Origin: Schmidtea polychroa
Lineage: Eukaryota
Assembly (NCBI GenBank): GCA_044892525.1
Contig: CM097885.1
Span: 558,001-622,000 of the forward strand
Direction of reading: 5' to 3'
DNA length: 64,000 nucleotides
Shown piece by piece: positions 4,470 through 33,310 of the stretch (the stretch's first letter is position 1; each line of letters begins with the position of its first letter). The translations under genes and the position numbers were made by a program. The notes below the pieces were generated by a model that was not told where the DNA came from, made no database searches, and saw only the letters and a list, made by a program, of their open reading frames with translations.

Positions 4470-4720
4470 TCATGCTTTTCCTTGTCATCGGGCGAGATTT
4501 TTTTCCAATCGGCCAGTGTGATTCCATCAAGTCCTGGAGCAGTGTTTTGGAGTACTGAGAAGATTTATTATTTAGGATCTTCGTTATCTCCCTTACTACA
4601 AGGGACTTGGGATGTAGACCAGTCGTCCACCGTAAACACTACTTTAACCACTGGAACAATCATGTGAGTCATATCAAATGTCTTAAGTGAATAAGGAAGT
4701 TTGGAATTAGAGTCGAACGA
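4470..4720 (-). mobile_element. Non-LTR RT fragment, domain-0 region (second copy ~8670-8920)
   Basis: Minus-strand translation NTAPGLDGITLADWKKISPDDK matches the SPGxDGI motif that precedes non-LTR RTs. Confidence 0.6.
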
Positions 4721-13569: not shown

Positions 13570-14155
13570 GTACCAGTTTCAATATAAAGAACTACAGAGT
13601 TATAGAGAAAATTCAATTGTCAAATTAATATCGTAGCCGGTGACACAGATTCCTTCTTTCTAGAGTGTAAAAATGTTGATTTACGCTTACAACTATATCC
13701 AAAAATGATTGAAGATGGACTTCAAATTATCCAGTGACTGATTCATTTTTCTCAGATAAAATTTGTTCTGTAATCGGGAAATTCAAGGATGAGAATAAAG
13801 GAAATCAATATAAAGAATGGGTGTTTCTTCGACCCAAGTGCTACTCACTCCAAGGCGATAAAACACTCTAAAAGCCAAAGGAATAAGACTTACAAATTCT
13901 AATATCACCCATGAAGCTTATAAAAAAAGTGTATACTGATGGTGGAACAGTGAGCATCCCAAAAAAAAATAGGAAGTGTCAATCATCAGTTGTATACTTT
14001 CATGACAGAAAAATGAGCTCTCCAATGTTTGGACGATAAAAGGTATTGGTACAATTGTAATGAAAGCTATGCCTACGGTCACTATAAGATTCGTCACATG
14101 CATATTGCAACTTCTATGTCTAGAAATGAATGCAAATCGAAACAAGGACTTTAAC
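13568..14155 (+). pseudogene. polB: 3' fragment of family-B pPolB
   Basis: MYQFQYKE...AGDTDSFF...FLRPKCYS...DDKRYW with frameshifts; near-identical to 32091-32689. Confidence 0.9.
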
Positions 14156-14357
14156 AATTAAATTTATGTGAATAATAAAATATATATTGTGAATTATTTG
14201 ACTTCGTTAATTAAAATATGTTTTATCATTTAATAATTCATTTGTCCAATTAATTTAGATAATTAGTTTTAAGTAAGAATTATTATTTATCATGAAAAAC
14301 TTTGCTTTGTTTTGAAAAATTAATGCCCATTTTATTTTAAATTAACACAGCTTTATT

Positions 14358-15298
14358 AGTAGTGTGGTTATATACCCAACCAAAACAGCCCTCCCAACAA
14401 AACATGCCTCCAAATCACTTAAGCTATTAGAAAAACAACCTAAAACTTTTACTTTTATAGTATTTTAACCCTATATTTTGAAAACAACCACCCTTAATGA
14501 CTCTAACTGTTTTAATTTTTAAAGCCTCAAACTCAAAAGCATCAAACTAAAAAGAGAATAGAAAAGAAAATGGCATTATGAAAAAGTTAGAGGGCTATTT
14601 GATCTTTATCAGATTATTGATTTTAAATTATATAAATTAAAAAATAAATGAAAAATAGTAAAACTGCTCTGAGGGGACAGTGGTATTTTTTTTTTTTTCA
14701 CTGTCCCCTCAACAGTTTTTTTTGATCCGGTTCATTTTTTTTATTTATCAACCTCTTTCGTTTATCGAATCTCTTCCAATATACAAGCTGGCCAGACTCA
14801 TACATCAGAATCAATCCGATAATAGCAGCACACCTTATTATTCGCTTCTCGCTCGAATACGATTTCATCGGCGTTTTAAGTGTGCTGCTCGAAAGTACAA
14901 ATGAATTCGAAAGCGAATTCGAAAGAGGTCCGAAAACAACTGAGAAATAAATGTGCACATTAAAGAATCGATCCGGGGGTGTTCGAAAGACAGGTGGCGA
15001 TAATTACCGGTTCGCCACCATCACCCGTTTCAATATTTTTTTTTTCATATTTATGTTTAAAAAATAATTAATTAATAAAAAAATAAAATAAAATAAAATA
15101 AATAAAATAAAATATACAAGTACTTTATAAATATAAGATACCCACACTATTTTCAATATTATTTTCAAATTTTTAATATTATTTTATGTTGAAAAAAAAA
15201 CTAACCTCAGATGTGATTTGAACCGCTAGCATTTTGAACCACTGTGTCAGTCTAGCCCACTGCGCCATCAAGGTTTGGATTTTTTGTCATTTTTTAAA
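14358..15298 (+). repeat. Left TIR of Polinton A (~940 bp)
   Basis: Reverse complement of ~30472-31416 with scattered substitutions and small indels. Confidence 0.96.
15192..15274 (-). ncRNA. Candidate tRNA-derived Pol III transcription unit within the left TIR
   Basis: A box TGGCGCAGTGG (15267-15257), B box GGTTCAAATC (15224-15215), terminal stem ACCTTG/TGAGGT, T9 terminator; cloverleaf arms not conserved. Confidence 0.55.
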
Positions 15299-15379
15299 TT
15301 TTTATTATAAAAAATGAATAATATAAATCTTAAAAAATAAAATGAAAACAGGGTATCCAATAAAAATTTTTTTCTAAAA

Positions 15380-16012
15380 ATGAATTGTAATATTTGCAAT
15401 AAAGTTTTTAAAAATAAAACTGGATTAATTTCTCACTTAAAATCGAAAGCTCATTTATTAAAAGAAAATAATTTTAATGATACAAATTCAAAACTTTGTC
15501 TTAAATGTAAAGGAAGATTTCTACATTCTGGATATAATAAACATTTTGAAAATTGTATCGGGAAAAATAGAGAAATATTTACATGTCCTCATTGTAACTT
15601 TTCAACAAAACTAAATTTCTATTATTTAGAACATATAAAAGAATGTAAAAATAAAAAACAAAATTCTGACGATGAGGAATGTCATTCAGAAGGAGAGCCT
15701 GATCATGTTGAAAGAGAAAAATATAACTGGGATAATTTTAATCATATAGATGAATTTCAATTAAAAATTAATGGGCCTGCAACTCCTGGAGAATATATAA
15801 ATAAAAATAAAAAAAATATTAAAAATTCTTTCACTGATTCTTTAAAAAATTATAAGCCGACAAGGTATAATGTTATAAAATATAAAATTATAATCAAAGC
15901 AAAATACTGGCGAGGAGCAGAAGAAAAGACAACACCCTTAGATGTTGAAATGGAATACCTTTTAAATATTTATTTTCAATTAAAGGATTTGATAAAACCA
16001 TCAAAGAAATAA
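15380..16012 (+). CDS. Zinc-finger protein (three C2H2/C2HC-like fingers); probable frameshifted N-terminus of pPolB
   Basis: CNIC..H..H, CLKC..H..C, CPHC..H..C; overlaps the open pPolB frame from 15949. Confidence 0.8.
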   Translation: MNCNICNKVFKNKTGLISHLKSKAHLLKENNFNDTNSKLCLKCKGRFLHSGYNKHFENCIGKNREIFTCPHCNFSTKLNFYYLEHIKECKNKKQNSDDEECHSEGEPDHVEREKYNWDNFNHIDEFQLKINGPATPGEYINKNKKNIKNSFTDSLKNYKPTRYNVIKYKIIIKAKYWRGAEEKTTPLDVEMEYLLNIYFQLKDLIKPSKK

Positions 16013-19000
16013 TTAAAGCAGCAGAAGCAAAACAAGAGGAAGTAGAAAATGAATTAGGAGATTCAAACTTAGTATTCAACTCTTTCCAAACTTTAGTGAT
16101 TGATTATTGGAGAGGATTACCACCCAATTCTAAATCTTATATTTCTACACCCTTTAAATCTAAAAATGTTATAAATGTACAGAATAATGATAACAAATGT
16201 TTCATCTGGTCAATACTTGCACATTTACATCCTCAAGCAACAAATCCCCAAAGAGTTTCAAAATACAAACAATATGAAAATGAATTAATATTTCCCAAAG
16301 GATTCAAACACCCAATGAAACTAGAAGACATTCCAGAATTTGAAAAATTAAATAATCTTAAACTTAATATTTATGAACATGTTATAGGGAAAGAAATTAT
16401 TCCAATTTATATTTCAGATAGTGGAACCAAGGATAACGGAGCACAGGACAATGAGATATATCTTTTAATCTTGGAACAAGAAAATAATCAACATTATGTT
16501 TTAATAAAAAACTTTCAAGCTTTTAGATCTCCAGAGAATCCAACTAGTGGAGGAGGAACATGTAAAAGATGTCTTCATTATTCAACAACTAAAAACTCTA
16601 TGATTAAACATACAAGATTTTGTGAAAAAGATGATCCAGCTTTAATTAAAATGCCTAATAATCCCAAGATGTATTTTAAAAACTTTTCAAATTTACTACA
16701 AACAGTTGGAGTTCTTTATGGTGACTTTGAATCTATAAACCATAAACAAGATTTGGTTTATCAATATTTAAAAATAATAGAAAAAAATAAACTCATGGAT
16801 TTATGGAACTCCTCAGGAGAGAAGATGAAACCAGAGAGGATGAAAGCCTTTCTAAGAAAAAGAAATAAACCTAATAGTGTTAAAAAAACTAAACAATTAT
16901 CATCTGCTTATAAATTATTATTTAAAAGTAATTATCCTGAACTCATAGAATCTAGAGAATATTCAATTCTAGGAGGTACCCCTGAAGAAGTCTTGAATCA
17001 TTTTACTAAAAATATAAATGATCTAGAACATGAAATATTTAAAATATTAAAAACAAAGTATCCTCAAAATATTTCTAATCAACAACAACAAGAATATGAA
17101 AATACTTCCAACTGTTGGATGTGTAAACAGAATATTCTTCCTGATGAAAAAGTTATAGATCATGATCATTTAAAAAAGGAAAATAATTATCGAGGAGCAG
17201 CTCATAAAAATTGCAATCTTAATTGCCATACTCCTAAATTTATACCTGTTATATTTCATAATCTTTTTGGATATGACATACATCTATTTATTAAACACCT
17301 CGCAGCAAATGCTAAAAACTCTTTCAAAGTTATCGGCTTAACAAAGGAAAAATATAAATCAATTGAATATGGAAAATTAAAATTTATAGACTCGTTAAAC
17401 TTTCTCCAAATGTCTTTAGATGCAGTAGCAAAAACAATGAAAGCAGAAAATTTTAAAATCACTGGAGAATTCTTGGAAAAAAATAATATTCCTCTAGAAG
17501 AATATCCTACATGTTTAGCAAAAGGAATATATCCTTATGACTATGTTGACTCGTTTGAAAGATATAATGAAACAAGTCTTCCTAGCCAAGAAGATTTCTA
17601 TTCACAACTTCAAAAAAATCATATTACAAATCAAGAATATTCTCGAGCAAATAAAATGTGGGAATTATTCAAGTGTAAAACTTTAGGAGAATATACAAGT
17701 ATGTATTTATCCTTGGATGTTTATATTCTAGCAGATTGCTTTGAAGAATTTACAAAATCTTTTGTTCTTAAACCCTATAATTATATAACTGCACCCTCTT
17801 TAGCTTGGGATACTATGTTATATACCATTTGGACTTCAAATATAGAAGATGCTGATAAAATTATAGATCTTTTAACTAACCTCGATATGTTTAACCAAAT
17901 TAAAACAAACATTAGAGGAGGAGTCTCTTCAGTAATGGGGAATAGAGAAATAAAAGCTAGAAATGCAATAACTACTAGCCGAAGACTATCTAAACACCCT
18001 GATGATCCATATATGAAAATTAACAATGAGGAATTAAAAGAATTATTAGAAACAATGAAAAATCCTATATTTATACTTTATATAGATGCAACAGCTTTAT
18101 ATTCAGGAATTATGACTCAATATTTACCAATGAGTGATTTCACTGAAATAGAGAACCCAACAGATGACCTTATGAAAGAAATACTTTCAACATCGAAAGA
18201 TTCTCCAATAGGTTACTTTATAGAATGTGACCTCGACTATCCAGATGATATAAAATCAGGAACAAGATATTTTCCTTTAGTTCCCATAAGCCGACAAGGT
18301 ATAATGTTATAAAATATAAAATTATAATCAAAGCAAAATACTGGCGAGGAGCAGAAGAAAAGACAACACCCTTAGATGTTGAAATGGAATACCTTTTAAA
18401 TATTTATTTTCAATTAAAGGATTTGATAAAACCATCAAAGAAATAATTAAAGCAGCAGAAGCAAAACAAGAGGAAGTAGAAAATGAATTAGGAGATTCAA
18501 ACTTAGTATTCAACTCTTTCCAAACTTTAGTGATTGATTATTGGAGAGGATTACCACCCAATCCTAAATCTTATATTCCTACACCCTTTAAATCTAAAAA
18601 TGTTATAAATGTACAGAATAATGATAACAAATGTTTCATCTGGTCAATACTTGCACATTTACATCCTCAAGCAACAAATCCCCAAAGAGTTTCAAAATAC
18701 AAACAATATGAAAATGAATTAATATTTCCCAAAGGATTCAAACACCCAATGAAACTAGAAGACATTCCAGAATTTGAAAAATTAAATAATCTTAAACTTA
18801 ATATTTATGAACATGTTATAGGGAAAGAAATTATTCCAATTTATATTTCAGATAGTGGAACCAAGGATAACGGAGCACAGGACAATGAGATATATCTTTT
18901 AATCTTGGAACAAGAAAATAATCAACATTATGTTTTAATAAAAAACTTTCAAGCTTTTAGATCTCCAGAGAATCCAACTAGTGGAGGAGGAACATGTAAA

Positions 19001-20724
19001 AGATGTCTTCATTATTCAACAACTAAAAACTCTATGATTAAACATACAAGATTTTGTGAAAAAGATGATCCAGCTTTAATTAAAATGCCTAATAATCCCA
19101 AGATGTATTTTAAAAACTTTTCAAATTTACTACAAACAGTTGGAGTTCTTTATGGTGACTTTGAATCTATAAACCATAAACAAGATTTGGTTTATCAATA
19201 TTTAAAAATAATAGAAAAAAATAAACTCATGGATTTATGGAACTCCTCAGGAGAGAAGATGAAACCAGAGAGGATGAAAGCCTTTCTAAGAAAAAGAAAT
19301 AAACCTAATAGTGTTAAAAAAACTAAACAATTATCATCTGCTTATAAATTATTATTTAAAAGTAATTATCCTGAACTCATAGAATCTAGAGAATATTCAA
19401 TTCTAGGAGGTACCCCTGAAGAAGTCTTGAATCATTTTACTAAAAATATAAATGATCTAGAACATGAAATATTTAAAATATTAAAAACAAAGTATCCTCA
19501 AAATATTTCTAATCAACAACAACAAGAATATGAAAATACTTCCAACTGTTGGATGTGTAAACAGAATATTCTTCCTGATGAAAAAGTTATAGATCATGAT
19601 CATTTAAAAAAGGAAAATAATTATCGAGGAGCAGCTCATAAAAATTGCAATCTTAATTGCCATACTCCTAAATTTATACCTGTTATATTTCATAATCTTT
19701 TTGGATATGACATACATCTATTTATTAAACACCTCGCAGCAAATGCTAAAAACTCTTTCAAAGTTATCGGCTTAACAAAGGAAAAATATAAATCAATTGA
19801 ATATGGAAAATTAAAATTTATAGACTCGTTAAACTTTCTCCAAATGTCTTTAGATGCAGTAGCAAAAACAATGAAAGCAGAAAATTTTAAAATCACTGGA
19901 GAATTCTTGGAAAAAAATAATATTCCTCTAGAAGAATATCCTACATGTTTAGCAAAAGGAATATATCCTTATGACTATGTTGACTCGTTTGAAAGATATA
20001 ATGAAACAAGTCTTCCTAGCCAAGAAGATTTCTATTCACAACTTCAAAAAAATCATATTACAAATCAAGAATATTCTCGAGCAAATAAAATGTGGGAATT
20101 ATTCAAGTGTAAAACTTTAGGAGAATATACAAGTATGTATTTATCCTTGGATGTTTATATTCTAGCAGATTGCTTTGAAGAATTTACAAAATCTTTTGTT
20201 CTTAAACCCTATAATTATATAACTGCACCCTCTTTAGCTTGGGATACTATGTTATATACCATTTGGACTTCAAATATAGAAGATGCTGATAAAATTATAG
20301 ATCTTTTAACTAACCTCGATATGTTTAACCAAATTAAAACAAACATTAGAGGAGGAGTCTCTTCAGTAATGGGGAATAGAGAAATAAAAGCTAGAAATGC
20401 AATAACTACTAGCCGAAGACTATCTAAACACCCTGATGATCCATATATGAAAATTAACAATGAGGAATTAAAAGAATTATTAGAAACAATGAAAAATCCT
20501 ATATTTATACTTTATATAGATGCAACAGCTTTATATTCAGGAATTATGACTCAATATTTACCAATGAGTGATTTCACTGAAATAGAGAACCCAACAGATG
20601 ACCTTATGAAAGAAATACTTTCAACATCGAAAGATTCTCCAATAGGTTACTTTATAGAATGTGACCTCGACTATCCAGATGATATAAAATCAGGAACAAG
20701 ATATTTTCCTTTAGTTCCCATAAG
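15852..20724 (+). repeat. 2,434-bp internal tandem duplication in the pPolB gene
   Basis: ATAAG microhomology at 15852, 18286 and 20720; near-identical translations. Confidence 0.96.
15949..18312 (+). pseudogene. polB: Truncated first copy of pPolB (ends after motif A at the duplication junction)
   Basis: Same translation as the 18530 ORF (two differences) up to FPLVPI, then out-of-frame junction sequence. Confidence 0.9.
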
Positions 20725-22123
20725 AAGAAAGATTGATATCAACGAACTTCCTGAATGGCAAATCTCACAAGATAAACCTCCAACAATGAAACTTCTTTGT
20801 GATCAAACAGATCGAAGGTTTTATCTTTGTCACTATAGACTCCTCCAATTTTATCTCTCACGAGGAATGATATTAAAAAAAGTTCATAGTGTCATAAGAT
20901 TTAAACAAGCTCCATTCATGAAAGCTTTTATCGAGGAGAACATTAGGTGTCGAAACATTGCAAAAAGAGAAGGTAACCTTTTTAAAGATAATAATTATAA
21001 ACTTTTAAACAATTCAGTCTTTGGGAAAACAATGGAGAATGTTGATAAATATACTCATATTGAACTCCTAACAAATACTACCAAAGATATTAAGCGTTAT
21101 AATCGCATGCTAGGAAAGCCTACATTTAAAAACGCACAAGTATTTTCTGAAAATCATACTGCAGTAGAATTAAAAAATTATGAGAAAACATATAACAAAC
21201 CAATATTTATAGGGTTTACAATTTTAGAACTTTCAAAATTACAAATGTATGAAACATATTATAACATCTTACAACCTATATACGGAGCAAATATATCAAT
21301 GCATGCAATGGATACAGATTCAATGTTTTTAACAATAAGAACTCATGATTTACAAAAAGATATGAAAGAAAATCCTATACTTTCAAATTTAATAAATTCA
21401 TCTGGAGAACTATTTTCGTTTAAAGATGAAAAACCTTTTACTCCTATAGAAAATGGAATATTTATTCGTGCTAAACAATATTCATACGAAACATTTAGAA
21501 ACCCTGAATTTATAACTAGATCATTTATATTTAAAACTCCAGAAACAGAAGAAACCATTACACATAGATATCCTATATTTCCTAAAGGACCAGAGGGACA
21601 AGAAGAAAAACCTGTAAAGGATAACAGATGTAAAGGAATACAGAGAGTGGTGGCAAAGAATCTTTCTCATCAAGATTATATAGATACATTGAATCCAAAT
21701 CATAAAGATAAAATTGATGAAATACATCAACTTAAAAGTGAAAACCATGATATTCACTTGATAGAATCTCAAAAAGTATCATTATCAAATTATGATGATA
21801 AGAGATTCATACTAAGTGATTTAAAGACAACTCTACCTATTGGAAATAATTTAATTCCTATAATAAAAAATCTAGAAAAGTTGAATAAGTTATATGATAC
21901 AAAGATTACTGATCTTGATATTTATAATGTTGAAATTATTTATCCCGAGAGAGAAATCGAGAAACCTTTATATTCTCAAGTTTTTAATCCTATATGTTTA
22001 GAACTTAAATATTTTAATACTGATCCTGAATATATAAAAGGTCTAAGTGATAAAGAATTTAAAGATCATAAATTAATGATTCATAGGTTGGCTTTAACCA
22101 TAACTGAAACCAACGATATTTAA
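18383..22123 (+). CDS. polB: Protein-primed family B DNA polymerase with EndoVII-like insert (open frame begins ~18383; ORF track start 18530)
   Basis: Exo YGDFES and FHNLFGYD; DHDH...YRGAAH..CN; YIDATALY, KLLNNSVFGK, MDTDS, AKQY, DDKR. Confidence 0.96.
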   Translation, partial: NGIPFKYLFSIKGFDKTIKEIIKAAEAKQEEVENELGDSNLVFNSFQTLVIDYWRGLPPNPKSYIPTPFKSKNVINVQNNDNKCFIWSILAHLHPQATNPQRVSKYKQYENELIFPKGFKHPMKLEDIPEFEKLNNLKLNIYEHVIGKEIIPIYISDSGTKDNGAQDNEIYLLILEQENNQHYVLIKNFQAFRSPENPTSGGGTCKRCLHYSTTKNSMIKHTRFCEKDDPALIKMPNNPKMYFKNFSNLLQTVGVLYGDFESINHKQDLVYQYLKIIEKNKLMDLWNSSGEKMKPERMKAFLRKRNKPNSVKKTKQLSSAYKLLFKSNYPELIESREYSILGGTPEEVLNHFTKNINDLEHEIFKILKTKYPQNISNQQQQEYENTSNCWMCKQNILPDEKVIDHDHLKKENNYRGAAHKNCNLNCHTPKFIPVIFHNLFGYDIHLFIKHLAANAKNSFKVIGLTKEKYKSIEYGKLKFIDSLNFLQMSLDAVAKTMKAENFKITGEFLEKNNIPLEEYPTCLAKGIYPYDYVDSFERYNETSLPSQEDFYSQLQKNHITNQEYSRANKMWELFKCKTLGEYTSMYLSLDVYILADCFEEFTKSFVLKPYNYITAPSLAWDTMLYTIWTSNIEDADKIIDLLTNLDMFNQIKTNIRGGVSSVMGNREIKARNAITTSRRLSKHPDDPYMKINNEELKELLETMKNPIFILYIDATALYSGIMTQYLPMSDFTEIENPTDDLMKEILSTSKDSPIGYFIECDLDYPDDIKSGTRYFPLVPIRRKIDINELPEWQISQDKPPTMKLLCDQTDRRFYLCHYRLLQFYLSRGMILKKVHSVIRFKQAPFMKAFIEENIRCRNIAKREGNLFKDNNYKLLNNSVFGKTMENVDKYTHIELLTNTTKDIKRYNRMLGKPTFKNAQVFSENHTAVELKNYEKTYNKPIFIGFTILELSKLQMYETYYNILQPIYGANISMHAMDTDSMFLTIRTHDLQKDMKENPILSNLINSSGELFSFKDEKPFTPIENGIFIRAKQYSYETFRNPEFITRSFIFKTPETEETITHRYPIFPKGPEGQEEKPVKDNRCKGIQRVVAKNLSHQDYIDTLNPNHKDKIDEIHQLKSENHDIHLIESQKVSLSNYDDKRFILSDLKTTLPIGNNLIPIIKNLEKLNKLYDTKITDLDIYNVEIIYPEREIEKPLYSQVFNPICLELKYFNTDPEYIKGLSDKEFKDHKLMIHRLALTITETNDI

Positions 22124-22201
22124 TTTTTTAATAATAAAATGTCGACAATTAATTTAAGCAACTATAGCAACCTGATCTACTTTTTTAAAAATACACCCAT
22201 T

Positions 22202-22762
22202 TTATAAGTAAGAATTCTTTAACCATTTTTCTCGAGATGTTTTTTTATTACTTATAACATTAGCCACCATGCCCTCCCTTTTTAATCTTATAACCTCATT
22301 CTTTATATCTTGTATTATTTGATTTGATTTCATTATTTCTTCGTCTGTCAGGATTCCATCTTCCAAAGCTTTTAATTGAAATAAAAATAATTTAGAGATT
22401 CCTAATTCTATTGATAAACAAACTTCTCTATATAAACTTTTCTTTTTAGAAGTATAAGATAATGAAACTATTTCAGTTAAGAAACCATCAGCCACAGAAA
22501 TACTTCCAAGTATTACAGGTGCAAGAGTAACAACTGGTAAAGTTATGGGTAAAATAACTGTTAATATTGCAGATGCAAATCCTAAAGAATAATCTATAAC
22601 TTTTAAAACTGTATTCCCTTTATTCCATCTATTTTTAATTTTTTTATAATGCTTTAATAAATCTTGTAAATGTAAGGTTTCTGATTTAAATTCTTTTACT
22701 CTCATAATTTCAAGTTCTGTGGGAGCCGAGGCCTTGGAAGAATAATATCCTGATGATCTCAA
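22202..22762 (-). CDS. Predicted two-TM membrane protein, resembling the 'GasderminX'-type ORF of adintoviruses (tentative); start uncertain
   Basis: Central hydrophobic pair, upstream in-frame IYPEL...SAP, C-terminal KALEDGILTDEE. Confidence 0.55.
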   Translation of the reverse strand: MRSSGYYSSKASAPTELEIMRVKEFKSETLHLQDLLKHYKKIKNRWNKGNTVLKVIDYSLGFASAILTVILPITLPVVTLAPVILGSISVADGFLTEIVSLSYTSKKKSLYREVCLSIELGISKLFLFQLKALEDGILTDEEIMKSNQIIQDIKNEVIRLKREGMVANVISNKKTSREKWLKNSYL

Positions 22763-22806
22763 TTCTGGGTAAATTTTTTCTTCTCTTACTTCTTCCTTTT
22801 TAATAT

Positions 22807-23817
22807 TTAAAAAAATAAGACTTTATTCTTCTGAGCACCATCTGGCACCAATACTCGGATGTCAAAAGAAACTCTTGTTGAGAGGATATCTTTATACAAT
22901 TCTCTCAATGCTTTACGAACTTCATCAACATCAACCTTTTTTTCATAAAATATTAAATCTATATATTGTACAAGTGAACTAGAAAAATGAATATTCTTAC
23001 TTTTAACTTTATGTAGTCCATGTGAATGAGTATTAACATACCAATCTCCGTGTGGTAAATCATAACTAGTCATTATAACATCACCCTTTTCAAGCTTACT
23101 ATTATAATCACATTTCACAAACCATTTCATTCTTTCATTATCATCATCAAACAAAAAGAAATAAGGATCAATAATTTTTACAACCATAAAAACACCCCAT
23201 TCTTTACTGTTTGTTGTTATTAAACTTGGTTCTATAAAATGTTTATATGTATGGGGTAATAATGTTTTATTCTGTTCTAATTCAGCAGCTCTTTTTCTAA
23301 TACTATGTGTGGTGTTAATGTGTGTTCCATGAGACTCTAAATTTGAAATTCTTTTATTAAATGATGTAATCATCTCATTTATTATTTTATATATTGTATT
23401 AAATTTAGTATTCATAATTTGTTTATCTTTAGAATTTAATATAGCAGTATTTAATTTTACAACTTGTTCAGTTAACAGACTTTGTAACTTGTCAAATTTA
23501 TCATTAAATCGTTGTTCGATATTATTAAGCTTTGATTCCATTGAATCAATGTTTGTTGTTAATGAACTTTCAATTCTTGTTGTTGTTAAATCAGTAAAAT
23601 TTTTAACACCATCAACATATTTTTTATTAACTGCATCAGCTTCATCAGTTGGTAAAGATAAATCTTTTATCTTGTGTCCATTTAAATTTAAATCTCCTTT
23701 CATTGAATCACCTCTTTCATTAATATATTTATTTTCTGTTAAAGTTAATATTTCTTCTGTATTAAACCCTGTTTTTATTGTTCTACCACCTCTATTACAT
23801 GGAATATAAGAACTCAT
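22807..23817 (-). CDS. Fiber/spike-like virion protein
   Basis: GDSMKGDLNLNGHKIKDLSLPTDEADAVNKKYVD motif, then a coiled coil, an RKR/AA site and a globular C-terminus; adjacent to the penton gene. Confidence 0.65.
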   Translation of the reverse strand: MSSYIPCNRGGRTIKTGFNTEEILTLTENKYINERGDSMKGDLNLNGHKIKDLSLPTDEADAVNKKYVDGVKNFTDLTTTRIESSLTTNIDSMESKLNNIEQRFNDKFDKLQSLLTEQVVKLNTAILNSKDKQIMNTKFNTIYKIINEMITSFNKRISNLESHGTHINTTHSIRKRAAELEQNKTLLPHTYKHFIEPSLITTNSKEWGVFMVVKIIDPYFFLFDDDNERMKWFVKCDYNSKLEKGDVIMTSYDLPHGDWYVNTHSHGLHKVKSKNIHFSSSLVQYIDLIFYEKKVDVDEVRKALRELYKDILSTRVSFDIRVLVPDGAQKNKVLFF

Positions 23818-23841
23818 TTATTAATAATTTAAAATGAATCT

Positions 23842-24605
23842 TCAAACCTGTTTCAAATGTAAATACATTGAAATCTCTTCTCCATTAAAATCAATCAATT
23901 CTCCTTCTTGATTAAGAATTTTAAAATTAATATCCATTATATATTTTCTACATAAAGGTAAATAATTTGGAGGATTCATTCTTTCAACTATTTTATATCC
24001 CATAGGAACTGTGTTTGAGGGAAAGGAATATAAAACATTTGTTTGTTTACCATTATTATAAAAACCTGTTATACAATCGCAATGAATATTTATTGTGTTT
24101 GTATTTATTATTTTTATAATATTTTCTGATGTTATTATTTTATCTTCTTTTATTGTTATATCCATAGGTTTAAATCCTAAAACTGTGTAAAGAAACAATT
24201 ATCTAAAAAACTAATTTTTAAATTCTTCAAAGTCATTACACATTTTGAAGTTGGTATATCCATTTTAATTTTAATACCTTCATTTGTTTTTTTAGAAAGT
24301 ATATCATTTAAATCTTTTATCTCATATGCCCCAGGTTCTATTGTTATAATTTCTGGTTTATGCCCATCACGAGTTTGAATAGTAAATTTATTATTATCTT
24401 TAGTTATATTAAAAATAGTATTATAAGCACAAAACCATAATAGCCCCAATTCATAATTTAAATTTTGATCTAATTTAATTGAATCTTGAAAGTTTATAGT
24501 AAAGTCTGATTCTTTTGAATTTATAGATAAAGTTCTTGAATATTTATCTGACATTATGTTTACCATTTTTTTTAAATTATCTTCCGGAGGCTTGTGAAGC
24601 TCCAT
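23842..24605 (-). CDS. Minor capsid protein (penton, single jelly-roll), split by one frameshift near 24195
   Basis: FTINF..IKLD..YELGL, IEPGAYEIKDLN, VLGF, INIHCDCITG.Y.NG, NQEGELIDFNGE motifs. Confidence 0.85.
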
Positions 24606-24653
24606 TTCTTTAGTAGTAAATTCATATAGTAAAAATCCTTATAGTAAAAATCC

Positions 24654-25118
24654 TTATAGTAGAGATTCTAGATCATTATAAATTTCTTGAATTATAGATT
24701 CAAAATCCTGCGTATGCCCCTTTCCCTCTTCCTTATTCAATCTATACAAAACATATAAACTTAAAATACCACATATTTTAGTATTCAAAGGTTGAACTTG
24801 TAAAGAGTTAAAAGTATAACCATTTGGGGAATCAATCGGAGAACCCCTCAAGAGATAATCTTCAACTTCTTTAGTAGGTTTAATCCCAAAAGAATCAAAG
24901 TAGATAGATTTCTTATATATACAAACCCAATGAGATCCTTTTTCATTTGAATTTTGATAATTGATTATTATATTCAGGGGACTCTCCAGACTTGATAATT
25001 CATCATTCATTAATATTTTAATTTTTAAATTTAAATAATTTGCATAATCTTTTAAATCAAAATTTGTTTTTGCATTTATTCCAAATGTTTTTAAAAAATC
25101 TAATATTGAAGGAGTCAT
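24654..25118 (-). CDS. Adenain-like cysteine protease (maturation protease)
   Basis: GSHWVC, YFDSFG and QVQ...CG catalytic motifs. Confidence 0.93.
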   Translation of the reverse strand: MTPSILDFLKTFGINAKTNFDLKDYANYLNLKIKILMNDELSSLESPLNIIINYQNSNEKGSHWVCIYKKSIYFDSFGIKPTKEVEDYLLRGSPIDSPNGYTFNSLQVQPLNTKICGILSLYVLYRLNKEEGKGHTQDFESIIQEIYNDLESLL

Positions 25119-25140
25119 TTTGTATTTTAAAACTTCGTAT

Positions 25141-26022
25141 TTATAACTTCGTATACTTATTAAATTTATCTTTTGAAATTATTCCTTGTTTTAACAAATC
25201 TTTAGAAATCTTTAAAATATCAGAATCTAAATTATTATGTCCTGCTTTCCTTGCAGCTAATAGTTTTCTTAATTCAATAAAAAGATTGATGGGATTTGGT
25301 TTACCACCTTCACTAATTAATCCCTCTCCCTCTGTAACAACATAACCCTTTTCATTTTTATTTAAATAATTCTTTAAATCTTGAATATATTTTGCTTTAG
25401 AACTAGCTCTTATTAATCTTATTAAATTTAAATATTTTTTAATTTCTTCAACATCATCTGAAGAATATCCACAAAGTAATCTATAAAAATCATCTGTAAA
25501 TTCAAAGTCTAAATATTCATTATTATAAACATTTTGTGAATGAATACGTGATTTATTTTCTGAATTTGAATATAAAGTAAAGTTTTGTTTATTAATTGTT
25601 ATTATTTGATATCCTTCAGTATTAGTATTAAATGTGGGTCTAATTGAAGGAGGTAAATCATCTCTAATTTTAGGATCAACTTTAAGAGGTTTTGTTTTTA
25701 AAAACATTTCTTCTTCTTCCACATTAGAAATTCTTCTGCGTTTTCTTTGATTTCTTTCAGGATGGTTTTCACTGGATTCTTTTTCTTTATCCTGCCACTC
25801 TAGTTCTTTTATTTTTTGTTTTTTATCTTCTAACTCTTTAAATTTTGCTTGCTCATTGAAATCTTCCAACTCTTTTATAGCTTTAATTGTTGGCCCCTTT
25901 TGTTGTGTTATTACCTCATTTAATATTATAGATTCAGCATGTTGAGTTGTATCTTTTTTATTATATTTATCTTGTTCTGATTGTAATTTTTTTAAAAGTG
26001 CTAATCTTTCTTCATATACCAT
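25141..26022 (-). CDS. Polinton protein of unknown function
   Basis: 293-aa ORF; GEGL followed by P..L..EL..LLAARKAGHNN, a C-terminal pattern I recall from Polinton ORFs. Confidence 0.65.
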   Translation of the reverse strand: MVYEERLALLKKLQSEQDKYNKKDTTQHAESIILNEVITQQKGPTIKAIKELEDFNEQAKFKELEDKKQKIKELEWQDKEKESSENHPERNQRKRRRISNVEEEEMFLKTKPLKVDPKIRDDLPPSIRPTFNTNTEGYQIITINKQNFTLYSNSENKSRIHSQNVYNNEYLDFEFTDDFYRLLCGYSSDDVEEIKKYLNLIRLIRASSKAKYIQDLKNYLNKNEKGYVVTEGEGLISEGGKPNPINLFIELRKLLAARKAGHNNLDSDILKISKDLLKQGIISKDKFNKYTKL

Positions 26023-26044
26023 TTTAATGGTATCAAAAATGGTA

Positions 26045-26623
26045 TCATAGTTCGAAGGGCTTCAAGTATAATCCTTTACCATTTTTAGTTTTACAAAGGC
26101 ATCCATTCTTTAAAGATTTACATATTTTTTTTAAATCTTCTTTATCTTTTGAAGATAAAGATTCAGATGTAGAAATTTGATTTTTTAAAAAATCATTTAA
26201 ACCTCTACCTTTATAAGGATCAAGATAGAGACCTTTGCCCTGAGACTTTTGCCGACTCCCCTCATATGGATTAAGATAGAGACCCTTTCCAACGGACACT
26301 CCCCCTTTAGCTTGCCCTACCTTCTTCATTGAATCGATTTCAGTTTGTAGTTTTTCTTTTTCTAGGTCTGTCTTTTGAGATTCTTTAGCTTTTTGAACTG
26401 TAGTTGCAATTCCTCCAGCTAATCCAGCAGCACCTGATAAACCAGCAATGATTGCAGGTATTAAAGCAGCTAATGGAAGAATGCCACCTTCTTTAGCTTC
26501 GTGGAGCTTCGCTCTAACTTGTTCTTTTACATGTTTTCCAATAAAATATTTTTTACCATCAATTACTACTGATTTATTTTTATTTGAATTTATTAATTCT
26601 TGCAAAGATTCTTCAGTTGTCAT
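26045..26623 (-). CDS. Adenovirus pX-like core/membrane-active precursor
   Basis: GGILPLAALIPAIIAGLSGAAGLAGGIAT; repeated GKGLYLxP(Y/F). Confidence 0.7.
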   Translation of the reverse strand: MTTEESLQELINSNKNKSVVIDGKKYFIGKHVKEQVRAKLHEAKEGGILPLAALIPAIIAGLSGAAGLAGGIATTVQKAKESQKTDLEKEKLQTEIDSMKKVGQAKGGVSVGKGLYLNPYEGSRQKSQGKGLYLDPYKGRGLNDFLKNQISTSESLSSKDKEDLKKICKSLKNGCLCKTKNGKGLYLKPFEL

Positions 26624-26638
26624 TTTATAATAAACAAA

Positions 26639-27442
26639 ATGGATGTACGAAGTCCAATAATTTGGAAACCAATTTTAAATAGACATAAGAGTAAATTTAA
26701 TAATAAAGTATTTCCTGATAATTTTAGATTATTAATTGTTGGTTCTTCTGGATGTGGAAAGAATGTACTTGTTTTGAGAATGTTACATGAAGATGATTTT
26801 TTAGATTATAATAATTTAATCTTTTATTCTACAACCATAAATCAACCAGAATTACAACTTTTGAAATGTGGATTTGAAAATAAATTAACTAAAAAAGCAA
26901 TAATTGATATTTTTAAAAATCAACATAGGTGTCCTGAAGAAGTTTTTCAACCTTGTGATATGGTTGATTGGTATAAGGAAAAGATTTTAGAATCAGATAT
27001 TAGTAATAAAAATGATTATATTTGTGAAGAAGGGCAGGAGGCAATTCAAGTTTTATTCTCTAATAAACCTGAAGATGTTTTACATTGTGATTTACTTCCT
27101 AAAGATAAAAAGAATCTAGTTATATTTGATGATGTTGTTAATATGAAAAATCAAGAGATTCAAAAGAGTTACTTTACACGAGGTCGACATAATAATTGTA
27201 ATGTTATTTATATATCTCAAACATATTATGCTTTAGATAAAAATTCAATAAATAATTCCAATTGTTTTATATTTTTTAAATTAGATCGCCGTGATAAGAA
27301 TATGATTTATAATGATTTATTTTCAAATGTTGAACCTGATAAGAATATGTTTGATATGTTTGTTGATAATCATTGGAAAGAAAAATATAATTATATTTAT
27401 TTGGATAGAGAAGAAGCTGAAATATGGAAAAGTTTGTTTTAG
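26639..27442 (+). CDS. A32/FtsK-like genome packaging ATPase
   Basis: Walker A GSSGCGKN, Walker B LVIFDD, TRGRH, YISQTY. Confidence 0.95.
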   Translation: MDVRSPIIWKPILNRHKSKFNNKVFPDNFRLLIVGSSGCGKNVLVLRMLHEDDFLDYNNLIFYSTTINQPELQLLKCGFENKLTKKAIIDIFKNQHRCPEEVFQPCDMVDWYKEKILESDISNKNDYICEEGQEAIQVLFSNKPEDVLHCDLLPKDKKNLVIFDDVVNMKNQEIQKSYFTRGRHNNCNVIYISQTYYALDKNSINNSNCFIFFKLDRRDKNMIYNDLFSNVEPDKNMFDMFVDNHWKEKYNYIYLDREEAEIWKSLF

Positions 27443-27453
27443 GGCTTGTCGAC

Positions 27454-28262
27454 TTAAAAATCTGTTTTCTGTAGTTCATTATTATAAAATCTACCTAATA
27501 TTTTTTCATTATTTAAATCAAAGATGCTATATGTTATTGGAGTTATATAATGTATTTTATTTATAATAAAAATTTCATTTGTCCATTTTGCTGTGAATCC
27601 TTTTTCAAATTTATTTTATATTTAAATATTCTTACTCGGTCACCAATTTTAAACTTTGGTTTTTCAATAACATCATTTTCAATATTTACCACTTTAATGG
27701 TTTCAGGCTTCATAGAAGCATTTAAAGGTGTTAATTTTATAGAACTATGTACATCATTATTATATTCATTTACAATCTTTTGTAACAATTCATTGTTCCA
27801 TTTTTGTTTTCCAATAGCAGTAAAATATTTCCACATTTTATTTTTTAATGTTCTATTTAATCTTTCAACTACGACTGCTTTTCCTTCGTTTTCTGTTGAA
27901 TATAATTTAATATCATTTTCATTTAAAAACTTTGTAAAAACTTTGTTATAAAATTCTGTTCCTTTATCACACCATAAATATTTTGGGATTCTTTGATTTT
28001 CTTCAAATATATTTTCAAATGCTTCTGTAATAGAATATCCTGTTTTATTTTCTAAACATCTTGCAAAAGCAAATCTTGTATATAAATCTATTACAGTTAA
28101 AATTATTTTATATTTTTCAGGGTCTGATGATTTGGGCATAAAGACTAAATCTGCAGACCATGTTTGATCTTTTTCATGTACTTGAACTTTTAAATATTTT
28201 TTATTTTTTCTAAATTCATGGTGTAATTCCTTTGCATATTTTATTTCTGATTCTGTTGGGGT
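27454..28262 (-). CDS. Retroviral-like (rve) integrase; frameshift near 27617; no Met before the first catalytic Asp
   Basis: AKELH...WSADL, WCDKGTEF, VERLNRTLK; the shifted frame gives KFEKGFTAKWTNEIF...FYNNELQKTDF. Confidence 0.92.
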
Positions 28263-28858
28263 TTATAAACTAGTCTTGGCTGTACTCTCGAGGGATCTTT
28301 CAATCTCTGCTTGTTCGATAATCTTTTTATAAGCAACATCTTTTGCTTTCCTAGGAAGTCTTGCACCCATGGTGATCGGACTGTGTCCTAAGCCTATGAA
28401 AATCTTACCTTTCATTGCTAATTTAACTAGAGCTCTTTGAATCTTTTCTTGGGTTGATGGATTTTGGTTACTATTTAAATCATGTATTAAATTCACATCT
28501 GCAACATGTCTATCTCTAAGATTTGTTGAATTGTATGCAATGTCATGTTTTAAAGCTGCTTGATCAATTCTATTTATTGGTTCTTCTCCTTGTTTGGGAT
28601 TATTATTTTCATCTAATCTAATATCTAGACGTGTTCCTGGTCCAGTATAGTTGTGTTTAAATAAATGTCTTTCACCTGGATATTTTTCTGTAGTAAAAGG
28701 TTTTAATATTGAAGATGTTGTTTTTGAAGATTGCAAATCGCCTCCAGCTCGTGGAATTAGGTCACCTACTGTATGTTTTTTAGTTTTAAGATGATTTGCT
28801 TTATGATTACTTGACAATTACAAGTTTTACATCTCCAATAGGGTTTATTTAAAGACAT
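28263..28858 (-). CDS. Parvovirus VP1-type phospholipase A2 domain (PLA2X) with a frameshifted N-terminal C2H2 finger
   Basis: HNYTGPGTRL...PINRIDQAALKHDIAY; ATG at 28858 gives MSLNKPYWRCKTCNCQV, joining HKANHLKTKKH after a 1-nt shift. Confidence 0.88.
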
Positions 28859-28875
28859 TTTAAAATGTTAAAATA

Positions 28876-30168
28876 TTAAGAATCTCCCCTAACATTTTCA
28901 ATAATTGAAATCTTTCCACCATATAATTTCATTTCTATTTTCTTTTCTTCTAATATTAATGTATATACTTTAGCTTTAAAATTAGAATCCTTTGTTACAT
29001 GAAGTGTAACATCAACATTATTTATGGCTAGGCGATCATCTTGGTCTGATACATTTTTACAAAATATAGAATATAAATTTTTGAAATCTTCTAAACTTAA
29101 TTGCGGTTCAACTTTGAAATCATAACATGTTTCAATATAATTTAGATATGGGAATATGTTTTCATTATTTTCAATATTAAATTCCATTCTATTTATTGGA
29201 TAATAAGAACTATTTAATTGAATTTGGATTGTTTTTAAATTATCATCTCCAATCTTTTGAATAAATAGATTGTTATTTTTTTGGAAAGATGAATCTGTTT
29301 CTTTGAATCCAATCAAGATATATCTTGGTCGGTATGCTAAATTTGCTACCTTTATAGAATATGTTGAACCCTCTGTCATACTAAATTCACTACAGATTCT
29401 ATTTAAATAATTTACATTTATAGACTTGTTGGAATTTAATCTTTCAAGGAGTTTAATCTCAGAATGTGGGTTTAATGTCCATTCAGGTATATGTAATTCA
29501 AGTGTTGATAATTTTAATTTAGCTTTTGTATCTACAGCTCCATAGAACAATCTTTTATCACCTTCTACTCTATTACAGATGAATTCTATAAAAACATTAT
29601 GAAGTATACGATTATAGTTTTGAAGGAATCCAAACAAGTGTTTTAATTCAAAATAACCTTCAAATGTTTTAGATTTATAAAGTTCAGCTCTTTTATGGTA
29701 ACCATGGTTTACATCTAAACCATCTTTATCTAAATCCCCTTTATTAACATCAGGAATCCAACCTGTTAATTCACCATATTCGTTTTTATAATCACAACCA
29801 GTCAAAATAAAATTTAACATTGTAGAATATACTCCCGGATGCAAAACAGTTTCAATTTCTGATGATCCTAGTTTTAATCTCATGTTGGAGAATAAATTTG
29901 GAAAGAAATTATTTTCTAGGGTTATATCTTTGTTTGCTTCAATTTCTAATTCTACTTTGTAATATAATTTGGCATTACAAATATCTATTGGGTTTGATGT
30001 TTGAAGAGATTGAAAAACTATATCACCCCTACGATTTAAGTTTGCAATAGATCCTGAAGTTGGCGAGATTTTTAAAATATCATTTTTTTTAATTTCATGA
30101 GTAAATTCTTTATTATAATCAAGATTTAATTTATTTTTTTCTTGAATTTTAAGATTTATATTATTCAT
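28876..30168 (-). CDS. Major capsid protein (double jelly-roll, hexon-like), ~430 aa
   Basis: Size, beta-rich pattern, NNFFPNLFS.MRL.LG..EIE, LKHLFGF..Y, RPRYILIGF and QLNSSYYP motifs; position in the element. Confidence 0.88.
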   Translation of the reverse strand: MNNINLKIQEKNKLNLDYNKEFTHEIKKNDILKISPTSGSIANLNRRGDIVFQSLQTSNPIDICNAKLYYKVELEIEANKDITLENNFFPNLFSNMRLKLGSSEIETVLHPGVYSTMLNFILTGCDYKNEYGELTGWIPDVNKGDLDKDGLDVNHGYHKRAELYKSKTFEGYFELKHLFGFLQNYNRILHNVFIEFICNRVEGDKRLFYGAVDTKAKLKLSTLELHIPEWTLNPHSEIKLLERLNSNKSINVNYLNRICSEFSMTEGSTYSIKVANLAYRPRYILIGFKETDSSFQKNNNLFIQKIGDDNLKTIQIQLNSSYYPINRMEFNIENNENIFPYLNYIETCYDFKVEPQLSLEDFKNLYSIFCKNVSDQDDRLAINNVDVTLHVTKDSNFKAKVYTLILEEKKIEMKLYGGKISIIENVRGDS

Positions 30169-30254
30169 TTTTATATATAAAAGTTGATAAAAATAAAATT
30201 TGAAAAATAAAAATAAAAATAAAAGGGAATTCATTAAAAAAATAATTTATAAAA

Positions 30255-30476
30255 ATGATTGACTTTATTGAAAGAATGACAAATGAATTGAATGAAGTTA
30301 AACTTAAGAGAATAAAAAGAAGAGAAGAAGAACCATTAGAATACATTAAAGAGTTGGTGGTAGAGAATGAAAAGTATCGACATTTTTACATGAATGCAGT
30401 AGAAGTAGCTGAGAAAAGATTAGATAAAATAAAACAATTACAGGAAAGAATAAAAGAACTTGAATCGATTATTTAA
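30255..30476 (+). CDS. Small coiled-coil protein abutting the right TIR
   Basis: 73-aa E/K/R-rich heptad pattern. Confidence 0.55.
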   Translation: MIDFIERMTNELNEVKLKRIKRREEEPLEYIKELVVENEKYRHFYMNAVEVAEKRLDKIKQLQERIKELESII

Positions 30477-31416
30477 AAAAATGACAAAAAATCCAAACCT
30501 TGATAGTAGTGGGCTAGACTGACACAGTGGTTCAAAATGCTAGCGGTTCAAATCACATCTGAGGTTAGTTTTTTTTTCAACATAAAATAATATTAAAAAT
30601 TTGAAAATAATATTGAAAATAGTGTGGGTATCTTATATTTATAAAGTACTTGTATATTTTATTTTATTTATTTTATTTTATTTTATTTTTTTATTAATTA
30701 ATTATTTTTTAAACATAAATATGAAAAAAAAATATTGAAACGGGTGATGGTGGCGAACCGGTAATTATCGCCACCTGTCTTTCGAACACCCCCGGATCGA
30801 TTCCGGTAATGTGCACATTTATTTCTCAGTTGTTTTCGGACCTCTTTCGGATTCGCTTTCGAATTCATTTGTACTTTCGAGCAGCACACTTAAAACGCCG
30901 ATGAAATCGTATTCGAGCGAGAAGCGAATAATAAGGTGTGCTGCTATTATCGGATTGATTCTGATGTATGAGTCTGGCCAGCTTGTATATTGGAAGAGAT
31001 TCGATAAACGAAAGAGGTTGATAAATAAAAAAAATGATCCGGATCAAAAAAAACTGTTGAGGTGACAGTGAAAAAAAAAAAAAAAAAATACCACTGTCCC
31101 CTCAGAGCAGTTTTACTATTTTTCATTTATTTCTTAATTTATATAATTTAAAATCAATAATCTGATAAAGATCAAATAGCCCTCTAACTTTTTCATAATG
31201 CCATTTTTTTTTCTATTCTCTTTTTAGTTTGAAGCTTTTGAGTTTGAGGCTTTAAAGATTAAAACAGTTAGAGTCATTAAGGGTGGTTGTTTTCAAAATA
31301 TAGGGTTAAAATACTATAAAAGTATAAGTTTTAGGTTGTTTTTCTAATAGCTTAAGTGATTTGGAGGCATGTTTTGTTAGGAGGGCTGTTTTGGTTGGGT
31401 ATATAACCACACTACT
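30472..31416 (-). repeat. Right TIR of Polinton A
   Basis: Reverse complement of the left TIR, ending ACCACACTACT. Confidence 0.96.
30497..30577 (+). ncRNA. Right-TIR copy of the Pol III-like unit with an altered A box
   Basis: TAGTAGTGG replaces TGGCGCAGTGG; B box and T9 run intact. Confidence 0.4.
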
Positions 31417-31422
31417 TTTATT

Positions 31423-31868
31423 TTATGATAATTACTAATTAAAATTTTATTCAAATTGAAATATTATTGTTACAATTTACACTCTTGTTAGAATATATTA
31501 AATGTAAATGTAAAATAATAACAATAAAAAAAAATAATAATAATAAATAAAAAAATTAAATAAAAAAATTTAAATTAAAAAAAATAATAATAATTAGTTA
31601 AATAATTAATTAAAAATTAATTAAAAATTAAATAAAAAAAATCATTTAAATAACGTAAGTAATTAAAATAAAATATTAATAATTAATTAATTAATTAAAT
31701 GTAATAAATTGAAAATTAACTAAAGTAATTAAATAAAACAAAAAACATAATAAAATAATTACTTAATAAATTTAAAAAAAAAATTAAATAAAATGATTCG
31801 ATTGACCTATATTTGATCTGGACATTGGGATGACTTGAAAGTGTTCTGGAGTCCTCACTATATACTAC
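31423..31868 (+). repeat. Remainder of the family-B terminal repeat interrupted by Polinton A
   Basis: Continues the empty-site sequence; ends GTCCTCACTATATACTAC. Confidence 0.85.
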
Positions 31869-33310
31869 AACAGTTTATACGGTAAAACTGTGGAAAACTT
31901 GAAGAAACGTATAAATTTGAGATTATGCAACAAAAGCAAAAGATTTATAACTTATTGTAGTCATCCTATGTTTCGTCGTAGCATCAAGATTGCGGATGAT
32001 CTCATTGCTGTTATACTCAATAAGGAATATGTGTGCTTAGATAGACCAATGTATATTGGACAAACCATACTTGATTTATCCAAACTTCGCATGTACCAAT
32101 TTCAATATAAAGAGCTACTGAGTTATAGAGAAGAATTCAATTGTCAAATTAATATCGTAGCCGGTGACACAGATTCCTTCTTTTTAGAGTGTAAAAATGT
32201 AGATTTACGCCTACAACTGTATCCAAAAACGATTGAAGATGGGCTCTTAGATACTTCAAATTATCCAGTGACCGATCCGTTGTTCTCTGATGAAATTTGT
32301 TCTGTAATCGGGAAAGTTAAGGATGAGAATAAAGGAAATCAATATAAAGAATGGGTGTTTCTTCGACCCAAGTGCTACTCACTCCAAGGCGATAAAAACA
32401 CTCTAAAAGCCAAAGGAATAAGACTTACAAACTCTAATCTTACACATGAAGCCTATAAAAAGTGTATACTGATGGTGGAACAGTGAGTATCCCACAAAAA
32501 AGAATAGGAAGTGTCAATCATCAGTTGTATACTTTCATGACAGAAAAACGAGCTCTCCAATGTTTGGACGATAAAAGGTATTGGTACAATTGTAATGAAA
32601 GCTATGCCTACGGTCACTATAAGATTCGTCAAATGCATATTGCAACTGCTATGTCTAGAAATGAATGCAAATCGAAACAAGGACTTTAACAATTAAATTT
32701 ATGTGAATAATAAAATATATATTGTGAATTATTTGACTTCGTTAATTAAAATATGTTTTATCATTTAATAATTCATTTGTCCAATTAATTTAGATAATTA
32801 GTTTTAAGTAAGAATTATTATTTATCATGAAAAACTTTGCTTTGTTTTGAAAAATTAATGCCCATTTTATTTTAAATTAACACAGCTTTATTTTATGATT
32901 ATTACTAATTAAAATTTTATTCAAATTGAAATATTATTGTTACAATTTACACTCTTGTTAGAATATATTAAATGTAAATGTAAAATAATAACAATAAAAA
33001 AAAATAATAATAATTATAAATAAATAAAAATTAAATTAAAAAAAAATTAATTAAATAACGTAAGTAATTAAAATAAAATATTAATAAATAATTAATTAAT
33101 TAAATGTAATAAATTGAAAATTAACTAAAGTAATTAATTAAAACAAAAAACATAATAAAATAATTAATTAATAAATTTAAAAAAAAAATTAAATAGAAAA
33201 AATTAAATAAATTTAAAAAAAAATAAATAGAAATGATTCTATTGACCTATATTTGATCTGGACATTGGGATGACCTTGAAAGTGTCCTGGAGTCCTCACT
33301 ATATACTACT
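31869..33310 (+). mobile_element. polB: Family-B element right end: pPolB 3' part (31869-32689, one frameshift) plus terminal repeat ending ACTACT
   Basis: NSLYGKTVENL, GDTDS, RPKCY, DDKR motifs; terminus CTCACTATATACTACT at 33310. Confidence 0.88.

Follow-up and report, generated by a model that had tools for sequence, protein, structure and literature searches.

Positions 14358 to 31416 of the window, the whole 64,000-nucleotide stretch of Schmidtea polychroa DNA analyzed here (GenBank GCA_044892525.1, contig CM097885.1, positions 558,001 to 622,000, forward strand), very probably hold a non-autonomous copy, now decayed, of a Polinton/Maverick family (Polintoviricetes, adintovirus-like) that is young and very abundant, and this copy entered the terminal repeat of a different Polinton family in a single integration. 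The identity of the element as a Polinton and its insertion site are secure to the point of near certainty. On its own, the window copy is a nested insertion in decay, of an ordinary kind. It is the family that deserves attention, for its PLA2-integrase precursor and its many capsid genes under selection.

The element is 17,059 bp long, with tips that read AGTAGT (at 14358) and ACTACT (at 31416). Its left terminal inverted repeat (TIR; 14358 to 15298, plus strand, 941 bp, starting with AGTAGT) and its right TIR (30473 to 31416, minus strand, ending with ACTACT) were 97.6% identical over 947 columns in a BLAST alignment, with 11 substitutions and 3 gaps in the first 879 aligned bases, and the 6-bp target site duplication (TSD) TTTATT lies immediately outside them at 14352 to 14357 and 31417 to 31422 (unstranded). 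A 19-mer representing the empty site was present exactly twice in the window and in none of 100 shuffled sequences. One occurrence (32881 to 32899, plus strand) falls within the target-repeat copy that comes next, which has an AGTAGT-type end at 33310, and the second (58231 to 58249, plus strand) is followed by an end of the same type at 58662. In the genome as a whole, a 21-mer that bridges the empty site was counted 336 times (control, 0) and the filled left junction twice, with an identical flank in both cases. With 336 empty sites against 2 filled left junctions, the insertion is a single event, and after one integration the junction and its flank would have been duplicated together. A target-site hotspot was ruled out by the same counts, as the two filled left junctions share one flank. 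The initial annotation had described exact ends with a 6-bp TSD, highly similar TIRs, two paralogous empty sites, a provable insertion site, and a length of about 14.6 kb once an internal duplication was removed; each of these was borne out, the last by computation (17,059 - 2,434 = 14,625 bp).

The left part of the target (13567 to 14357, plus strand) is terminal-repeat sequence from a second Polinton family, and in it lie the remains of a PolB gene's 3' end. The target repeat occurs as inverted pairs, mostly 7 to 13 kb apart, and the PolB relic beside one empty site (31968 to 32486) is 30% identical to the PolB of the element. Judged from these inverted pairs, the AGTAGT-type end and the PolB 3' relic, the element sits inside a terminal repeat that belongs to a different Polinton family. 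This second Polinton-type family is present in the window at 13567 to 14357, 31417 to 33310 and 57618 to 58662, and its long terminal repeats include its own PolB 3' end. The PolB of one sampled copy was broken, with a transposase-like ORF inserted, and no capsid or integrase gene was found within the 9.9 kb of that copy examined. Between approximately 0.82 and 1.34 Mb of G000:C1, a run of target-repeat copies lies on one strand, several of them at a spacing of approximately 4.4 to 4.6 kb, which suggests that they form a tandem array close to the end of the contig.

Several other features of the surrounding DNA were recorded. A 5'-truncated non-LTR retrotransposon ORF (11788 to 13569, minus strand; RVT_1, zf-RVT) adjoins the target repeat at 13567 and has what we take to be a restriction-like endonuclease motif. 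At G000:C1:1335921, the right flank of the window element adjoins the element's polymerase side, a flipped or recombined arrangement that probably arose by recombination between TIRs, and at G000:C1:1307669-1322296 a 14.6-kb sibling has flanks that are inverted copies of one another and no ordinary TSD. Local duplicates in the window that are 99.4 to 99.9% identical (1543 to 4866 and 5746 to 9069; 827 to 1707 and 4870 to 5750), and which are also joined to the truncated twin described below, represent either recent duplication or assembly redundancy. A degenerate short-period array of ACCAAGT/ACTA-like units with a strong strand bias occupies 48900 to 50200. An index of sequencing runs gave 24 runs from 8 studies, of which 20 contain some of the stretch and none of these is an RNA run, a listing that bears on neither expression nor range. 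In the mitochondrial COX1 of the assembly, TGA was read as Trp (opposite Trp at 7 of 8 positions), ATA was opposite Ile at 5 of 11 positions and Met at 1, and AGA/AGG was opposite Ser at 2 of 2, codon usage that is in line with the flatworm/echinoderm mitochondrial code. The contig G000:C433 carries a COX1 that is open under the bacterial code and has no TGA codons, and is probably a bacterial contaminant or symbiont.

The polymerase gene of the window copy is interrupted. Its 5' part (15380 to 16012, plus strand), which belongs to a protein-primed PolB and encodes a C2H2 zinc finger, is out of frame with the remainder, and the main pPolB frame (18383 to 22123, plus strand) encodes 1,246 aa with a vOTU-like Cys motif, Exo I to III, Pol A to C and, by its motifs, an EndoVII-type insert at approximately 19547 to 19651; these assignments use motif patterns that we presume to be diagnostic. 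Pfam DNA_pol_B_2 (pfam03175) matched PolB above its cut-off (E = 7.5e-13). The EndoVII-type pPolB of the initial annotation stands as far as the EndoVII motifs go, but the Pfam Endonuclease_7 match is weak (E = 0.005, below the cut-off), and the OTU part has the Cys motif but gave no match in the Pfam search. A PDB sequence search with PolB gave no match, the closest polymerase in the protein collection was 49% identical, and the best named matches were insect, arachnid and fungal proteins at 28 to 36% identity. In the siblings, 23 of 41 scored PolB matches were free of stops at 1442 to 1454 aa, 8 had one stop and 10 were shorter. Within the polymerase gene of the window copy lies a tandem duplication with a period of 2,434 bp, whose first copy (15852 to 18290, plus strand) yields a shortened PolB frame that stops at 18312 and differs from the second (18286 to 20724) by 2 substitutions.

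Five coding breaks were located in the window copy: in the PolB 5' part at approximately 15.95 to 16.0 kb, in the PLA2 5' part at approximately 28.82 kb, at a stop codon at 28263 to 28265 that falls at the PLA2/integrase join, in the integrase 3' part at approximately 27.6 kb, and in the penton gene at approximately 24.19 kb. The element had been called complete, which holds for its gene set and ends but not for its coding capacity, and the five breaks together with the 2,434-bp duplication speak against an intact element. Because it lacks an intact integrase and penton, the window copy is mobile only with proteins from its siblings. A twin at G000:C1:540231, 32 kb upstream, is 99.9% identical and has the same left junction. 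It has the PolB break in common with the window copy, has neither the duplication nor the penton break, and stops at the equivalent of position 25874. The duplication and the penton break are either very recent mutations or assembly errors. We consider it rather unlikely that the true copy is 14.6 kb long and less damaged, with the duplication and part of the frame breaks introduced by mistakes of assembly or base calling where the contig end is dense in repeats. The twin that lacks both features, the further 99.9% identical local duplicates in the window and the position of four frame changes near homopolymer runs of 4 to 5 bases would fit this reading, but such runs are ubiquitous in DNA this AT rich, the two halves of the duplication differ at 2 sites, and the polymerase break is common to the twin and an independent insertion. 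The shortened 1,246-aa PolB frame is likewise common to an independent insertion.

The exact terminal 20-mer of the element was found 942 times in the genome (481 forward, 461 reverse; control, 0), which corresponds to about 470 elements, and with every copy at full length the family would account for as much as about 0.9% of the 781-Mb assembly, most of which is in four contigs of 93 to 272 Mb. Sampled siblings were 96 to 99% identical to the window copy, their end pairs were 13.4 to 14.9 kb apart (n = 6), in line with 14,625 bp, and 14 of the 16 pairs of sibling ends had a 6-bp TSD (one set contributed 5 of 6, one of them within a TTA repeat, and the other 9 of 10, two of which were duplicates of one insertion). 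Divergence between the two TIRs of an element ranged from 0.11 to 3.64%, with a median of about 1.0%, and was 1.25% for the window copy, so the family is young, as had been claimed, and the window copy is of ordinary age within it. For comparison, the median number of Mavericks per vertebrate genome is 8 and the maximum 287 (PMC8097293, in part), and in invertebrate genomes total viral regions can be far more numerous (bioRxiv 2025.04.19.649669, in part). The full gene set, the exact ends and TIRs only about 1% apart could also be expected of an exogenous, intact adintovirus that was recently endogenised a single time, which is how the element had been interpreted. The window copy is instead one of about 470 dispersed copies, its TIR divergence of 1.25% is ordinary for them and it carries five coding breaks; a single endogenisation would further require that the siblings were separate infections by one circulating virus, and we regard it as very improbable.

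Pfam matches above the cut-off were obtained for 5 of the 14 element ORFs scanned (pPolB, A32 ATPase, rve, PLA2 and DJR), and a sixth had a zinc finger. The replication, integration and virion modules named in the initial annotation are accordingly recognized by DNA_pol_B_2, rve, Pox_A32, Phospholip_A2_4 and DJR-like_dom. The labels protease, penton, fibre and core were given from motifs, position and comparison by eye, not from profile matches. Leftmost on the minus strand is a 167-aa hydrophobic ORF (22202 to 22705) with weak look-alikes in viral and invertebrate clusters (high feature score, recognition below threshold), followed on the same strand by a 336-aa ORF (22807 to 23817) with a coiled coil and weak leads in an Atlas search, which is probably fibre-like, a label that we assume. 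The putative penton, or minor capsid protein (23842 to 24605, minus strand), is split near 24190 in the window copy, and its 265-aa frame was present in 134 of the best-scoring 150 copies; its likeness to the Polinton PX rows in the consulted part of the PMC4028283 supplement was judged by eye, without a profile match. The putative adenain-like cysteine protease (24654 to 25118, minus strand) is named solely for its His, Asp and Gln-x6-Cys motifs, and this ORF gave no convincing Pfam or PDB match. A 293-aa ORF (25141 to 26022, minus strand) separates it from the putative core protein (26045 to 26623, minus strand), which has a pX-like GGIL motif, four GxG motifs and a weak Pfam Adeno_PX match (E = 0.23). 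On the plus strand are the A32-type packaging ATPase (26639 to 27442; Pfam Pox_A32, E = 5e-9; Walker motifs) and a 73-aa ORF that extends into the right TIR (30255 to 30476). The Walker A motif of the ATPase reads GKN; the usual form is GKT or GKS.

Between the ATPase and the capsid gene lies a PLA2-integrase fusion gene (27453 to 28858, ends approximate, minus strand), which is broken in the window copy near 28820, at the stop at 28263 to 28265 and near 27600, and which is a single 469-aa ORF in siblings. Both Pfam rve (E = 2.8e-12) and Phospholip_A2_4 were above their cut-offs in the window element. Each of two siblings examined has a single 469-aa ORF with both Pfam domains, and PLA2 and integrase were in one frame of 469 to 479 aa in 127 of the best-scoring 150 copies, a list that favours intact copies, as all best-scoring lists used here do. 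In a set of 8 copies selected on their termini, the fusion frame was at least 469 aa in 4 and both matches were in frame together in all 8. In the protein collection, both domains were found in 104 of the best 120 homologues, one of them from a coral, for a two-domain query that favours two-domain homologues. Among representatives at the 50% level, most of the best stretches cover the integrase part alone, from which we take stand-alone integrases to be commoner overall than fusions.

An alignment of 105 fusion proteins was filtered to 53 rows of less than 70% identity. The PLA2 His, Asp, Tyr and second Asp were present in 53 of 53 of these non-redundant fusions, and the integrase D, D and E in 53, 53 and 52 of them. 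Behind the PLA2 domain, a Lys and a Gly were each found in 53 of 53, and a GxG or GG motif 30 to 55 residues past the HD motif was found in 47 of 53 fusions versus 3 of 496 control windows. The fusion is almost certainly natural. The linker motif, K-x3-G-x-G, resembles sites that follow the cleavage consensus of the adenovirus protease and is for this reason read as a maturation site; by this analogy it is somewhat more probably than otherwise the cleavage site of the virion protease, and the GxG motif could instead be structural. The initial annotation had identified a PLA2X protein. This call is wrong, as the PLA2 forms the N-terminal portion of a protein that continues into the integrase, and the pX-like motif is in the separate ORF at 26045 to 26623. 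PLA2 in Polintons is already known and is thought to be packaged for entry (PMC4642659, in part). No description of a PLA2-integrase fusion was found in PMC3671162, PMC4028283, PMC4642659, PMC4061559, PMC5803895, PMC8502044, PMC11131425 or bioRxiv 10.64898/2026.10.13.758929. The fusion predicts that the integrase is a virion component that is freed by the protease.

The major capsid gene (28876 to 30234, minus strand) is uninterrupted and encodes 430 aa from an ATG at 30168. Pfam DJR-like_dom (PF21738) matched this ORF with an E value of 2e-25. A structural model from a 34-sequence alignment had a pLDDT of 89.5 and a pTM of 0.88 and was used in place of a single-sequence model (pLDDT 28.8). 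Its fold matches were the Sputnik, iridovirus, PBCV-1 and mavirus capsids (E values of 4e-14 to 3e-13) as well as adintovirus and MELD entries, all at 6 to 13% identity. According to the model and the fold search, the ORF at 28876 folds as a double jelly-roll, the point on which the initial annotation had said that its reading could fail. The closest capsid in the protein collection was 97% identical, and all 98 scored capsid matches in the genome were 99 to 100% identical and free of stops. For a capsid homologue at 72% identity, no closer match was present in the genome (73 to 75%), and a scan of viral contigs with the capsid alignment gave 0 relatives among 69 pattern matches.

Selection was assessed among the copies of the family. 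For the capsid gene in the 8 terminus-chosen copies, 26 synonymous and 20 non-synonymous variants gave a pN/pS of 0.20 to 0.30, and for the pooled virion genes of the same copies the counts were 45 and 52, with a pN/pS of 0.30 to 0.44 (p = 1e-8 to 6e-5). The other genes of these copies had a pN/pS of 0.38 to 0.56. There was no selection signal for the penton (2 synonymous and 13 non-synonymous) and little for the integrase part (5 and 11), each from few variants. In 20 copies chosen by protein likeness, the pairwise pN/pS of the capsid gene was 0.09 to 0.14 (21 of 21 rows kept; biased low). By these ratios, the family's copies show purifying selection on their capsid gene, which supports, without proving, a mode of spread that needs the capsid. 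We put the chances at about even that the family, which is known here from its genes alone, spreads through particles.

In such a cycle, the protein-primed PolB would replicate the element from its TIRs in linear form. This linear DNA would be packaged by the ATPase in a capsid of double jelly-roll and penton proteins together with the core protein and the PLA2-integrase precursor. The cysteine protease would cleave the precursor at K-x3-G-x-G. As happens in parvoviruses, the PLA2 would then open the membrane of the endosome, and the integrase delivered along with it would insert the DNA with a 6-bp duplication. The window copy would move solely with proteins supplied by siblings. A less probable, but still substantial, alternative is that spread is now intracellular, by a self-synthesising transposon with complementation in trans, and that the capsid selection goes back to viral ancestors of an earlier time or to related sublineages that invaded repeatedly. 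Broken-frame copies are common, an independent insertion has the same shortened 1,246-aa polymerase frame, the penton gave no selection signal, and capsid sublineages reach down to 91% nucleotide identity, so that some of the divergence may be older than the family's arrival in this genome. Against this, copy pairs with a pS below 0.02 still had a pN/pS of 0.09 (8 pairs, chosen by protein likeness and biased low), the terminus-chosen copies gave a capsid pN/pS of 0.2 to 0.3, and such selection has been taken to signal that particles form and reinfect (PMC8097293, in part).

A broader proposal is one that we make tentatively and consider doubtful as a whole: that a widespread clade of animal polintoviruses packs its integrase as a PLA2-integrase precursor split by the maturation protease, thereby gaining entry and integration from one gene product, and in this flatworm is still spreading from cell to cell via particles, with several hundred near-identical copies and a capsid under selection. 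Particle formation by animal Polintons is an open question (PMC8097293, in part), and an apparently laboratory-tractable flatworm with approximately 470 young copies, many of them with open capsid frames and signs of selection, is a good place to seek such particles. Polintons have been reported as piRNA targets in planarians (PMC8532177, in part).

The family shares with Polinton/Maverick elements (Polintoviricetes) the pPolB, rve integrase, A32 ATPase, a protease (putative here) and genes for jelly-roll capsid proteins, both the major and a putative minor one (PMC4028283 and PMC8097293, in part), and also the long TIRs, (AGT)2 ends and 6-bp TSD, the definition being (AG)3 or (AGT)2 ends in the consulted part of PMC8097293. 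It differs in its size, as about 470 copies exceed the vertebrate totals given there, and in the fusion of PLA2 to integrase. In common with Alpha adintoviruses (Eupolintoviridae, formerly Adintoviridae), it has an OTU-like N-terminal motif with a pfam03175 polymerase, a parvovirus-type PLA2, an FtsK/A32 ATPase, an adenain-like protease (putative here) and a pX-like motif (PMC8502044 and PMC12451622, in part). In that group, PLA2X is a PLA2 with a C-terminal pX-like domain, and the Alpha class has been equated with Polinton group 2 (PMC8502044, in part). Here, in contrast, integrase follows PLA2 and the pX-like motif has its own gene. The polymerase of the window element fits the Alpha/group-2 class by its motifs, in agreement with the likeness to group-2 Polintons and alpha-adintoviruses suggested in the initial annotation.

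In Schmidtea mediterranea, the Repbase entries Polinton-1_SM (14,867 bp) and Polinton-2_SM (15,944 bp) have a full virion gene set (PMC4028283 Table S1, in part) and are similar in size and gene set to the present family. The candidate undescribed lineage of the initial annotation has no close named relative in the protein collection, but the family or a close relative may already be described in Repbase. The Spodoptera Sf Mavericks 1 and 2 also have a PolB with a recombination endonuclease VII match, an integrase and a PLA2 domain, and their integrase bears a chromodomain; unlike the PLA2 of the family described here, theirs sits on a separate 'CAP' ORF and not on the integrase (PMC5803895, in part).
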